Position numbers and translations under genes: made by a program | Shown: positions 18,127-21,320 of the stretch, one piece after another | Position numbering within the stretch: the first letter of the stretch is position 1 | Layout of the letters: each line of letters begins with the position of its first letter | The notes under the pieces: generated by a model | Databases searched by the model: none | Seen by the model: only the letters and a program-made list of their open reading frames with translations | What the model was told of the DNA's origin: nothing | Origin: Candidatus Levybacteria bacterium RIFCSPLOWO2_01_FULL_38_21 | GTDB lineage: Bacteria > Patescibacteriota > Microgenomatia > Levybacterales > UBA12049 | Length of the DNA stretch: 64,000 nucleotides | Direction: 5' to 3' | Assembly (NCBI GenBank): GCA_001782475.1 | Contig: MFOT01000014.1 | Span: 12,109 to 76,108, forward strand

Positions 18127-18167
18127 CAAAGGAAGCAACGGAACGTCTATTATTTCCCGCTCAAACA

Positions 18168-18782
18168 ATGAAAGAAAAATTTGTTAAACCAGATGATCCA
18201 GTTCTTGTAAAGATAGCTCAAGGGATTAAACCAGAGGAAGTTGAATCTCCAGAAACAGCTGCAATAATTGAATGCGTGATTGATGTCGTTTACGGTAAGC
18301 AGGCAGACAGAAATAAACCTCTTTTGGTTGGGTTAGCTGCTCCCCAAATAGGTATTTCTAGAAGAATTGTTCTAATCGATGTTGCTGCTAGAGGAAAAGG
18401 TAATATTGGTGACTTAAGAGTCTACATAAACCCGGAGATTGTTTGGAAGTCAGAGCAAGAAAGTGAATGGTATGAGGGATGTTATCCTACAAGTAGAGTC
18501 TGTGGAATTGTTTCAAGACCTACAAGAATAAGAATATTAGGACTAACTCAGGAAGGGAAGTCAATTGAAGAAGAACACGAAGGATATACTGCCAGGATAT
18601 TTCAACATGAAATAGATCACTTAAATGGCATAGAATTTGTTTCCCATATTACCGATGATGATAAATTACATTGGGTAGAGGAGGAAGAATTTCCAGAATA
18701 TAGAAACAATGAGGGTTGGAGAAAGTGGTCTAAAAAATGTCCTCGCGAGAAGTGGGAAAAGATTAAAGGTATCCAACAATAA
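18168..18782 (+). CDS. def: Peptide deformylase (divergent)
   Basis: GLAAPQIG, EGCYP (canonical EGCLS) and QHEIDH; start moved to ATG 18168 because the longer ORF overlaps tRNA-Gly. Confidence 0.88.
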   Translation: MKEKFVKPDDPVLVKIAQGIKPEEVESPETAAIIECVIDVVYGKQADRNKPLLVGLAAPQIGISRRIVLIDVAARGKGNIGDLRVYINPEIVWKSEQESEWYEGCYPTSRVCGIVSRPTRIRILGLTQEGKSIEEEHEGYTARIFQHEIDHLNGIEFVSHITDDDKLHWVEEEEFPEYRNNEGWRKWSKKCPREKWEKIKGIQQ

Positions 18783-18857
18783 CCAGAATCCTTCTCTCTG
18801 AACGATTTGATAAATTCAAAAGCCTCTGGTCAAAAGCCGTAAACGCAATGTTAAATG

Positions 18858-18890
18858 TTCCCAATTGACGGGGTTTCTGTGATTTGATAA
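18858..18890 (+). repeat. Direct repeat copy 1 (degenerate pyrG promoter copy)
   Basis: 30/33 identical to 19606-19638. Confidence 0.85.
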
Positions 18891-18949
18891 CAGATTTTAG
18901 TTGCAAGGATTCCAAAACTTTTAATACTAACAATTGTCAATGTTCTTAC

Positions 18950-18978
18950 TTGACTGTATGCAATATATGTGTTATTGT
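18950..18978 (+). promoter_or_regulatory. Promoter convergent on the NYN gene 3' end
   Basis: TTGACT-17 bp-TATTGT with extended -10 TG; no + strand ORF downstream. Confidence 0.6.
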
Positions 18979-18984
18979 GTAATT

Positions 18985-19047
18985 AATCATTAGGGAGAAA
19001 ACGAACCTTAGACTACGTGTCTATGAGCAACGCCTCCCATTTTTTTT
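18985..19047 (+). ncRNA. Putative ~60-nt antisense sRNA overlapping the NYN stop codon
   Basis: Promoter upstream; GGGAG/CTCCC closing stem; TAGAC/GTCTA apical stem; T8 tract. Confidence 0.5.
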
Positions 19048-19562
19048 GGTTTAAATTCAAGCTTATTTTTATCGTAAATAATAAAAGTCTTATATTTTTG
19101 AAACGGTTTCAATAAAGACGACTCGGATTTAACATTTGGGATAACTATTATTAATAATTTTCCTTTCCCAACTAAGAATTCGTGCAGGCAGTAAAAATCT
19201 CCATCTCCCGATACTATTACCGCTTTATCATAATTTTTGTATTCAACAGCAGCTGAATATAATACTAATTCTGCATCTACATTTCCTTTTGGCTTACCCT
19301 GATTGTCTTTAACCGTAGGCTTAAAAACTAGATCATAGCCATATGATCTTAGTTTTTTGTACATTCTTTCATTTTGCTTAATATAACCGATAAAAAGAAA
19401 AGCTTTTTTTACCCTAAACTTGTCAGATAAATATTTTCTAAATTTTTTAAAATCCAACCTCCATCCTCTGTATATTAACTTCTTATTGCGATAAAGATTC
19501 TTACTAGTACCTAAATTCAAATTTTGACTATCAACAAAGGCATAAACTACTTCTTTTTTCAT
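19008..19562 (-). CDS. NYN domain (LabA/DUF88, PIN-like) ribonuclease
   Basis: AFVDSQNL, KGNVDAEL and VSGDGDF acidic motifs intact; start set at Met18 of the track ORF. Confidence 0.92.
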   Translation of the reverse strand: MKKEVVYAFVDSQNLNLGTSKNLYRNKKLIYRGWRLDFKKFRKYLSDKFRVKKAFLFIGYIKQNERMYKKLRSYGYDLVFKPTVKDNQGKPKGNVDAELVLYSAAVEYKNYDKAVIVSGDGDFYCLHEFLVGKGKLLIIVIPNVKSESSLLKPFQKYKTFIIYDKNKLEFKPKKMGGVAHRHVV

Positions 19563-19605
19563 CACAAATCTATAATAACACAAAAGCTTGCTATCGAGTT
19601 GGAAA

Positions 19606-19641
19606 TTCCCCATTGACGGGGTTTTTCTGATTTGATAAGAT
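19606..19641 (+). promoter_or_regulatory. pyrG promoter (direct repeat copy 2)
   Basis: TTGACG-17 bp-TAAGAT, then 5 nt to GTG. Confidence 0.7.
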
Positions 19642-19646
19642 AAATC

Positions 19647-21320
19647 GTGCCCCTATCAAATAAAAAACATAAAACCAAGTATATTTTTGTTTCAGGCGGT
19701 GTAATCTCCGGCATCGGAAAAGGAACAACCGCTGCATCAATTGCGTTTCTTCTCAAAGCCGCAGGCTATAAAGTTGCTCCTATAAAATTTGAGAACTATC
19801 TAAATCTTGATGCCGGTACGATAAATCCTATTGAACATGGCGATCCCTTCTTGTGCGAAGACGGTACAGAAGCAGATATGGACATAGGAAGCTATGAGAA
19901 ATTCTTGCATGAGGACATGGGAAAAGAGAATTTCGTCACGATGGGGGATATCTACAAGACTGTCATCGATAGGGAAAGACGGTTTGAATACAACGGAGAA
20001 GATGTTGAGGCAATCCCCTATATTACGGATGAAATAATAAAAAGACTAGACCATTTGGCAAGAAAGAAAAACGCAGATATCGTTACGATTGAACTGGGCG
20101 GAACAGCAGGCGAATATCAAAACGTACTTTATTATGAGGCATCAAGAATCTTAACGCTTAAAAGGCCCGGTGATGTAATCCATATCCATGTAAGCTATGT
20201 ACCAACTCCGGGTCATCTGGGAGAACCAAAAACAAAACCGACCCAGCTATCTATTAAGATGCTAAATTCTATGGGAATTCAGCCCGATTTTATAATCACA
20301 AGGTCCGAAAAGTATCTGGATCAAAGAAGAAAAGACAGACTTGCTCTTTTTTGCAGCATGCAAGAAGAAGACATAATTTCAAATCCTGACCTTGGGTCTA
20401 TTTACGAAATCCCAATTGTTCTTAATAAACAGGATTTGGATCAAAGGATTCTTAAAAAACTTCGGCTTTCGGTTCGAAAACCGAAATTGGCAGCTTGGAC
20501 AAATCTTATTGAAAAAATAAAAGCAAAAGGCAAAAAAAATATAGAGATTGCTATAGTTGGAAAATACTTCGGCACAGGAGATTATCAATTAAGAGACTCC
20601 TACGCTGCTTTATTTGATGCAATAGATCATGCTTCGTGGAAACTTGGGGTAAATAGCAAAACACACTGGATTGATGCTGAAAAAATAGAGCGGGAAGGCA
20701 TTGGGCTTATTGGAAATCCGGATGGAATCATAGTTCCAATAGGTTGGGGAGAACGTGGAGCAGAGGGAATGATAGCTGCCGCAAGCTACGCAAGAAATAA
20801 AAAGATTCCTTACTTGGGCCTTTGCTATGGAATGCAACTTTCGGCAGTTTCGTTTGCAAGAGATGTAATAAATTTTAAAGATGCAAATACAACGGAAAAT
20901 AATCCAAAAACAAAACACCCGGTTATTCATCTTATTCCAAAGCAAAAAGAATTTATGGAAAAAAGGGCATATGGAGGAACAATGAGATTAGGAGCATGGG
21001 ACGCAATCGTAAAAAAGGATTCTATGGCATTTGATATCTACAAAAAATACAATGGATTTTTAAATATTGAAAAAGGATTAGTAAGCGAAAGACATAGGCA
21101 TCGTTACGAATTCAATGATAGATTCACAAAAGATTTTGAGAAAAAAGGACTTGTTATAAGCGCAAGGTCGGTTGTTGAAAATCTTGCGGAAATTATTGAA
21201 CTTCCCAAAGACAAGCACCCATTTTATATTGCAACGCAAGGCCATCCTGAATATAAAAGCAGACCCCTCAATCCTCACCCTATTTTTCTTGCCTTTATAG
21301 AAGCTTGTAAAAAAACCTAG
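19647..21320 (+). CDS. pyrG: CTP synthase
   Basis: KYIFVSGGVISGIGKG, KTKPTQ, GLCYGMQ, RHRHRYE and HPEY motifs. Confidence 0.98.
   Translation: MPLSNKKHKTKYIFVSGGVISGIGKGTTAASIAFLLKAAGYKVAPIKFENYLNLDAGTINPIEHGDPFLCEDGTEADMDIGSYEKFLHEDMGKENFVTMGDIYKTVIDRERRFEYNGEDVEAIPYITDEIIKRLDHLARKKNADIVTIELGGTAGEYQNVLYYEASRILTLKRPGDVIHIHVSYVPTPGHLGEPKTKPTQLSIKMLNSMGIQPDFIITRSEKYLDQRRKDRLALFCSMQEEDIISNPDLGSIYEIPIVLNKQDLDQRILKKLRLSVRKPKLAAWTNLIEKIKAKGKKNIEIAIVGKYFGTGDYQLRDSYAALFDAIDHASWKLGVNSKTHWIDAEKIEREGIGLIGNPDGIIVPIGWGERGAEGMIAAASYARNKKIPYLGLCYGMQLSAVSFARDVINFKDANTTENNPKTKHPVIHLIPKQKEFMEKRAYGGTMRLGAWDAIVKKDSMAFDIYKKYNGFLNIEKGLVSERHRHRYEFNDRFTKDFEKKGLVISARSVVENLAEIIELPKDKHPFYIATQGHPEYKSRPLNPHPIFLAFIEACKKT

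Follow-up and report, generated by a model that had tools for sequence, protein, structure and literature searches.

In the type I toxin–antitoxin (TA) pairs TxpA/RatA and BsrG/SR4, a convergent small RNA with its own promoter overlaps the 3′ end of the toxin mRNA. ToxIN, CptIN and TenpIN each combine the gene of an RNase with that of a structured RNA which encodes no protein, a composition shared by the NYN unit described here. The RNA of ToxIN-type systems consists of tandem pseudoknot repeats which lie upstream, are co-transcribed and are followed by a terminator (PMC12283969), and RNA mimics known as pseudo-ToxI occur on phages (PMC3475682). AbiF, accompanied by AbiFr or RCd22, is a solo RNase neutralised in cis and in trans by binding a short structured RNA, and is present on prophages (10.1101/2025.04.15.648962; PMC12737573). 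The DUF3800-I to -XI, drum and skipping-rope motifs are structured RNAs that finish in a terminator and adjoin a lone gene, pointing either way; a single protein family is served by several folds unrelated to one another, and no function has been assigned to them (PMC5737381). The DUF3800 protein has an RNase H-like fold (PMC10910872).

The locus analysed here lies in a stretch of 64,000 nucleotides, the whole of which is called the window. It differs from ToxIN, CptIN and TenpIN in that its predicted RNA is single and rod-like, and lies downstream of the NYN gene, on the opposite strand and behind its own promoter. Upstream tandem repeats, a terminator and co-transcription of the ToxIN type are absent at this locus, as is a ToxN-type toxin, NYN being the only Pfam family matched and also the fold matched. 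AbiF differs in its HEPN fold and in having its RNA upstream and co-transcribed, and the window contains neither a HEPN/Abi_2 protein nor a match to the Rfam abiF motif. The DUF3800 RNA motifs are closest in layout, but the protein is a different one (NYN), and Rfam gave no match at E ≤ 10 over the RNA unit, either to the DUF3800, drum and skipping-rope motifs or to any other family; the RNA family tied to this NYN subfamily is absent from Rfam. With type I pairs the locus shares its convergent layout, the RNA being complementary to the mRNA with a predicted overlap of the 3′ UTR, but NYN is a 20-kDa protein of nuclease fold, and both the sequence and the own-strand fold of the RNA are under selection. 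Of type III TA in the broad sense, where an RNA binds and inhibits a protein toxin, the locus has the linked gene for a structured non-coding RNA. By layout or fold, the module is not ToxIN, CptIN, TenpIN or AbiF, and by analogy it likely works like them. The open literature searched yielded no NYN–RNA system and no RNA partner for the NYN/LabA-DUF88 family.

The NYN gene and its RNA unit in the window

All testable features place the window gene in the NYN family. Its product scored 49.9 bits against the PF01936 model (cut-off 24.2), and four aspartates (D11, D96, D120 and D122) are invariant in an alignment of 34 sequences, in keeping with the initial annotation, which had described the acidic motifs as intact. 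The predicted structure (pLDDT 91) matched VPA0982 (2qip; E = 4.6e-7, TM 0.68) and the MARF1 NYN domain (probability 1.0); fold and acidic active site are common to these two proteins, the B. fragilis CRISPR NYN and the window protein, which has a net charge of +22. NCBIfam gave no match for this protein, and PADLOC gave only weak NYN and HEC-09 matches (E = 0.009). RNase activity is predicted by analogy with the B. fragilis NYN; a related NYN is a Mn-dependent RNase for which the first Asp is required (10.1101/2024.04.08.588522).

The genome carrying the locus is 788 kb, and the record titles of the nearest NYN homologues are mainly those of Patescibacteria. Genes follow in the order tRNA-Gly, peptide deformylase (+), RNA unit, NYN (−) and pyrG (+), with coordinates given in Table 1. 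A −10-like hexamer occurs 4–10 nt upstream of the ATG in 24 of the 39 NYN rows listed, a count without a background control that is suggestive only of a likely leaderless NYN mRNA. The same genome holds a second, distant NYN gene (G000:C10:5261-5710, 30% identity); it too is faced by a convergent promoter, a hairpin and a U tract, and its RNA belongs to another type.

Table 1 Features of the NYN locus and its surroundings, in window positions
Feature	Position	Strand	Detail
Apparently variable slot	18129..19605		between tRNA-Gly and pyrG
ORF-like stretch	18763..18933	−	56 aa; between deformylase and RNA unit; no Pfam match
Left copy of 33-bp direct repeat	18858..18890	+	duplicated piece of pyrG promoter; 30/33 match
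Small-RNA promoter	18950..18978	+	−35 TTGACT, 17 bp, extended −10 TG-n-TATTGT
−35 element	18950..18955	+	TTGACT
Extended −10 dinucleotide	18970..18971	+	TG
−10 element	18973..18978	+	TATTGT
Predicted ~62-nt small RNA	18986..19047	+	conserved fold; model R1 82 bits; predicted ends; begins AUCAU
Closing stem P1	18993..18997 with 19034..19038	+	GGGAG with CUCCC
Apical stem	19009..19013 with 19019..19023	+	UAGAC with GUCUA; loop UACGU
U8 tract	19040..19047	+
NYN (LabA/DUF88) gene, 184 aa	19008..19562	−	PF01936 E 6e-13; stop codon 19008..19010
Possible −10 box	19572..19577	−	TATTAT, 9 nt upstream of NYN ATG
Right copy of 33-bp direct repeat	19606..19638	+	part of pyrG promoter
pyrG promoter	19613 and 19641		TTGACG, 17 bp, TAAGAT

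Facing the NYN gene, a sigma70-type promoter, a folded unit of about 62 nt and a U8 tract occupy 18950–19047 of the + strand. The initial annotation had described this promoter, with its 17-bp spacer and extended TG, and both stems and the U8 tract; every element is present where it was placed, and the promoter has an equivalent in homologues. The RNA layout comprises a conserved 5′ AUCAYNA, P1, an internal loop with two invariant ACG motifs, a covarying apical stem and a loop of YRYGU type. With a closing stem of just 5 bp around a 36-nt interior the unit is an atypical terminator, and a terminator scanner run on the window did not call it. Within the window alone neither promoter nor fold beats chance convincingly, and it is the homologues which carry the support: promoter-like sites numbered 27 against 17.8 ± 4.5 in shuffles, and the fold z-score was −1.6 on the + strand versus −2.5 on the mRNA strand. 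The mRNA strand was originally said to fold at least as well, which is the case in the window (−16 versus −13 kcal/mol).

The NYN stop gives an overlap of 40 nt with the RNA unit, about the last 13 codons as first described. Comparison with homologues indicates that this overlap is incidental and not typical. In 24 of 37 close homologues the coding sequence ends short of the RNA; in 4 the stop codon alone overlaps it, and the remaining 9 run 17–30 nt into it, in different frames and with unrelated tails. The window tail KKMGGVAHRHVV (residues 172–184), where model confidence is low, reads into the RNA locus; it is a read-through past a lost stop that most homologues have kept (24 of 37 end before the RNA), and not, as was originally proposed, a C-terminus dictated by the RNA structure. 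A functional C-terminal tail was rejected, given the differing frames among homologues and a pLDDT of 57–68.

The pyrG genes of relatives are preceded by a matching promoter, and NYN lies upstream in 0 of 29 such pyrG loci, of which one is without upstream DNA and some are short. The left copy of the 33-bp repeat is the left end of the inserted NYN+RNA unit. Flanking repeats of 33–68 bp were found at five other NYN+RNA loci, and one locus has a repeat of 208 bp. The direct repeats at L003, L005, L008, L012, L063 and L051 duplicate either the promoter of the adjacent gene or its beginning (at L012, its first codons), and no transposase was seen near these insertions.

Several further features of the region were observed. 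The pyrG −10 is conserved in relatives and the GTG start sits 5 nt past it (19636–19649), so pyrG is likely leaderless; many NYN genes resemble it in an apparent leaderless start. The slot between tRNA-Gly and pyrG appears variable: a tRNA-Gly-like end directly precedes the pyrG promoter in four relatives, and contigs from two sequencing runs connect 18129 directly to 19606. The peptide deformylase gene may be another insertion, and CCGCTCAAA recurs at the tRNA end and before the deformylase ATG.

Conservation and selection of the RNA

Loci for comparison comprised 35 found by protein search and 30 from 201 genomes of the phylum, one of which is the window; leaving out the fragments L034 and L035, this gave 63 loci of close and mid homologues, window included. 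Using a fixed rule (a −35 starting with TTG, 16–18 bp, a −10, a folded 30–80 nt and TTTT), a convergent unit was detected at 52 of the 63 loci and on the sense strand at none, against a background of 6 in 594 long ORFs of the same genome, one of these six being the window NYN itself. At the 11 loci missed, the unit is visible under looser patterns. Homologue promoters read TTGAnn-16/18-TAnnAT at the equivalent place; a conserved reverse promoter is what the initial annotation had proposed looking for.

The rule was also positive at 12 of 14 further loci with 48–57% identity. One of the two misses is truncated where its contig stops, the RNA still being visible, and the other, L258 (G300:C1), is truly without the unit; its NYN keeps the catalytic motifs, has a net charge of −2 and bears a 40-aa C-terminal extension. 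It is possibly a domesticated form. Ten of 21 distant NYN loci were positive and about four more could be read by eye, while the unit is absent from six loci which form one long-branch clade and from L270. In three members of this distant Patescibacteria clade (L269, L273 and L276) the NYN gene directly precedes what we take to be a pnp-like gene, likely a housekeeping contrast. Homologous NYN proteins extend to Dehalococcoidia (proteins only), and RNA units are present in MAGs labelled WOR-3 and Rickettsiales.

Covarying stems, also proposed at the outset as a check, were assessed in 36 aligned RNAs. In these, 96.6% of cells pair and both sides change in 8 of 14 pairs (compensatory); the covariation score was 0.331, a level which none of 500 shuffles reached (0.112) and which fell to 0.131 or less when the structure was slid, although the structure was derived from the same, kin-related sequences, which favours this result. 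Within the apical stem by itself, as many as four kinds of pair occur at one position.

A pair read as A–C on the + strand is G–U on the mRNA strand. Counting outwards from the loop, an anchoring which is neutral to strand, G–U outnumbered A–C on the + strand by 8 to 0 in the 34 distinct RNAs found through NYN and by 27 to 1 across all 120 distinct RNAs. Because of this excess, the + strand RNA is taken as the selected fold and the unit as no cis element of the mRNA. The initial annotation had cautioned that the hairpin might be a cis element or bidirectional terminator, and this is rejected by the 27:1 bias and by intact RNA units without NYN. An integron attC site or DNA hairpin was likewise rejected, by the G–U bias and the conserved promoter.

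Selection also appears to act on the RNA sequence itself. Across 34 loci identity was 76% for the RNA, 74% for its unpaired bases and 77% for codon positions 1–2, whereas four-fold sites had 31% and the promoter spacer 35%; a cis-antisense RNA complements its target automatically and so need not keep its sequence. Nearly invariant are the 5′ AUCA, both ACG motifs and the last bases of the loop. An RNA-guided nuclease was considered and rejected, as the RNA has no variable unpaired segment.

RNA interiors vary between clades. In a quick tree, the type found in the window characterises a single protein clade (39 rows, support 98), and NYN clades of 6 and 4 are each characterised by another type; the tree's label ‘none’ covers both unclassified units (12) and true absences (7). 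RNA type goes with protein clade, a pattern which linkage alone would give. At L106, L028, L042, L045 and L142, at least two RNA units of differing type are stacked behind one NYN, or type and clade do not match, as if antitoxins from lost modules accumulate. Downstream of the unit at L055 and L007/L008 lie further short GC-rich hairpins accompanied by A tracts; these may be small RNAs belonging to other solo genes.

Co-occurrence, orphan RNAs and phage-like contigs

The NYN subfamily is patchy, being found in 38 of 150 genomes of the class. Close NYN genes (66% or more) occur in 14 of these 150, and the RNA adjoins all 14; model R1 matches 15 genomes, the extra one holding an orphan RNA. Close NYN genes thus appear, from these genomes, to depend one-way on the RNA. 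Together with covariation and promoter conservation, this co-occurrence bears out the original proposal of a dedicated convergent small RNA, and the sequence comparisons support a conserved RNA tied to the NYN gene.

An RNA-first pattern scan of metagenomes gave, among the matches listed, 81 in 80 loci with flanks, with 40 further short loci left out of the count. Five of the 81 are chance matches (21.8 bits or less, versus 59.9 or more for true orphans). The 76 true units among the matches listed comprise 55 facing NYN, 19 without it and 2 too short at contig ends to tell. Of the NYN genes faced, 38 are intact, 11 cut by contig ends and 6 flagged as broken, of which 2 are probably motif variants.

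NYN-like remnants (E from 0.03 to 3e-9) were detected at 7 of the 19 orphans: scraps lie right beside the RNA in five (L098/L115, L109, L121 and L144), 35 nt away in L127 and farther in L142. Since several orphan RNAs keep NYN scraps beside them, the RNA would seem to be harmless alone and to outlast the gene. The reverse arrangement, with the RNA as toxin and NYN as antidote, was rejected in view of the intact orphan RNAs. A further six orphans lie among phage-type genes and represent four elements (L096/L138/L162, which are one element, L163, L164 and L170), on metagenome contigs that are short, 3–6 kb. The other six (L112, L125, L129, L139, L157 and L158) had neither NYN scraps nor the phage genes tested.

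A far-clade pattern gave 34 matches in IMG/VR, four of them real units. Among the IMG/VR contigs, L282 is an intact orphan RNA next to a holin and has no NYN nearer than 3 kb, L298, L312 and L318 are whole NYN+RNA modules, and L304, sister of L312, has lost its NYN between terminase and portal and kept the RNA. In all, five distinct phage-like orphans show no NYN trace and an intact fold, and such bare RNAs on phage-like contigs parallel the pseudo-ToxI of phages (PMC3475682). Close-clade patterns gave 4 and 3 matches in IMG/VR, judged to be chance (five of the seven were scored with R1, at best 18.8 bits), and a protein search of IMG/VR for close NYN found no viral locus. The GenBank phages searched gave no match, and a plasmid search returned only NYN at 29–31%.

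Candidate mechanisms and significance

On balance, and with modest confidence, we interpret the locus as a type III-like TA pair in which a NYN RNase is held by a convergently transcribed RNA, with direct binding predicted. A folded RNA of about 60 nt, transcribed from its own promoter on the opposite strand and presumably ending at the U tract, would bind the NYN protein and hold the RNase inactive; the basic protein may recognise the apical loop, the invariant AUCA at the 5′ end and the internal loop with its ACG/ACG. Should host transcription fail, either because a phage infects or because the module is lost, the RNA would decay and the released RNase would cut cellular RNA; a phage with only the RNA would neutralise the enzyme. 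Further control may come from convergent transcription and from pairing with the 3′ UTR. An antitoxin RNA binding the enzyme, as in AbiF and in ToxIN with its phage mimics, is suggested because the intact RNase hardly ever occurs without the RNA, the RNA outlives the gene, its unpaired bases are selected and bare RNAs occur on phage-like contigs. Also in its favour are the intact catalytic aspartates, the agreement of RNA type with protein clade, and the net charge of L258, the single subfamily member without a unit, at −2 compared with +6 to +25 in the close clade. Several observations count against it: the layout is that of type I pairs, L258 keeps its catalytic motifs without the unit (1 of 14 loci at 48–57% identity), six orphans have no explanation in NYN scraps or phage genes, PADLOC matches are weak, the closing stem makes an atypical terminator, and net charge does not separate the groups cleanly, the unit-bearing distant proteins L262, L266 and L280 being at 0 to +2.

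Antisense silencing of the type I kind, in which the RNA pairs with about 60 nt at the 3′ end of the NYN mRNA and the message is then removed by RNase III or through transcriptional collision, is possible because the layout allows a full duplex and the genome encodes RNase III, yet we regard it as unlikely. The convergent layout with perfect complementarity fits, no U tract precedes the unit on the mRNA strand, one-way dependence and orphans would also be expected, and 76% identity could permit pairing in trans. It leaves unexplained the 74% identity of unpaired bases where synonymous sites are near saturation, the invariant internal loop and the 27:1 strand bias; type I toxins, moreover, are mostly small membrane peptides. 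Type III-like binding appears to fit better than antisense on these sequence data, with the antitoxin role a matter of inference.

Improbable, too, is a non-toxic NYN ribonucleoprotein that acts in regulation or processing, with the RNA as its cofactor or dedicated substrate. Every sign that the protein recognises the RNA would suit this reading just as well, and NYN.COG1432 is classed as function unknown (PMC5499597), but the patchy, mobile spread (38 of 150 genomes) fits a conflict system better, and frequent gene decay with the RNA kept, as well as bare RNA on phage-like contigs, speak against it. We are more doubtful still of a selfish addiction cassette, which would use the same antitoxin mechanism without an anti-phage role and leave orphans as slow-decaying remnants; the 33–68 bp flanking repeats at five other loci and L304, a plain gene loss on a phage, would suit it, whereas five distinct phage-like orphans with an intact fold and no NYN trace would not. 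Finally, a cis element or bidirectional terminator on the NYN mRNA is hardly credible despite the better fold of that strand in the window, given 27 G–U pairs to 1 A–C, a promoter conserved on the opposite strand, with none of the 63 loci scoring on the sense strand, and orphan RNAs without a NYN gene.

Returning to the type III-like pair, we suggest more tentatively that it belongs to a widespread, undescribed anti-phage RNA-antitoxin family. It would be the first to join an RNase of PIN/NYN fold to an RNA transcribed convergently and independently, the RNA having diversified into several folds that track protein clades, and phages of Patescibacteria would counter it by carrying the bare RNA as a decoy. 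PIN-like toxins are known with protein antitoxins, and one held by an RNA would, if true, be a new pairing. To our knowledge, few defence systems are known in Patescibacteria. Cas13 arose from AbiF, itself an RNase paired with an RNA antitoxin, and a second family of small nuclease and RNA would for that reason be of interest for both evolution and engineering. The layout seen here may also account for the orphan DUF3800 RNA motifs, and the proposal gives a testable role to the large branch of LabA/DUF88 NYN proteins listed as ‘function unknown’.
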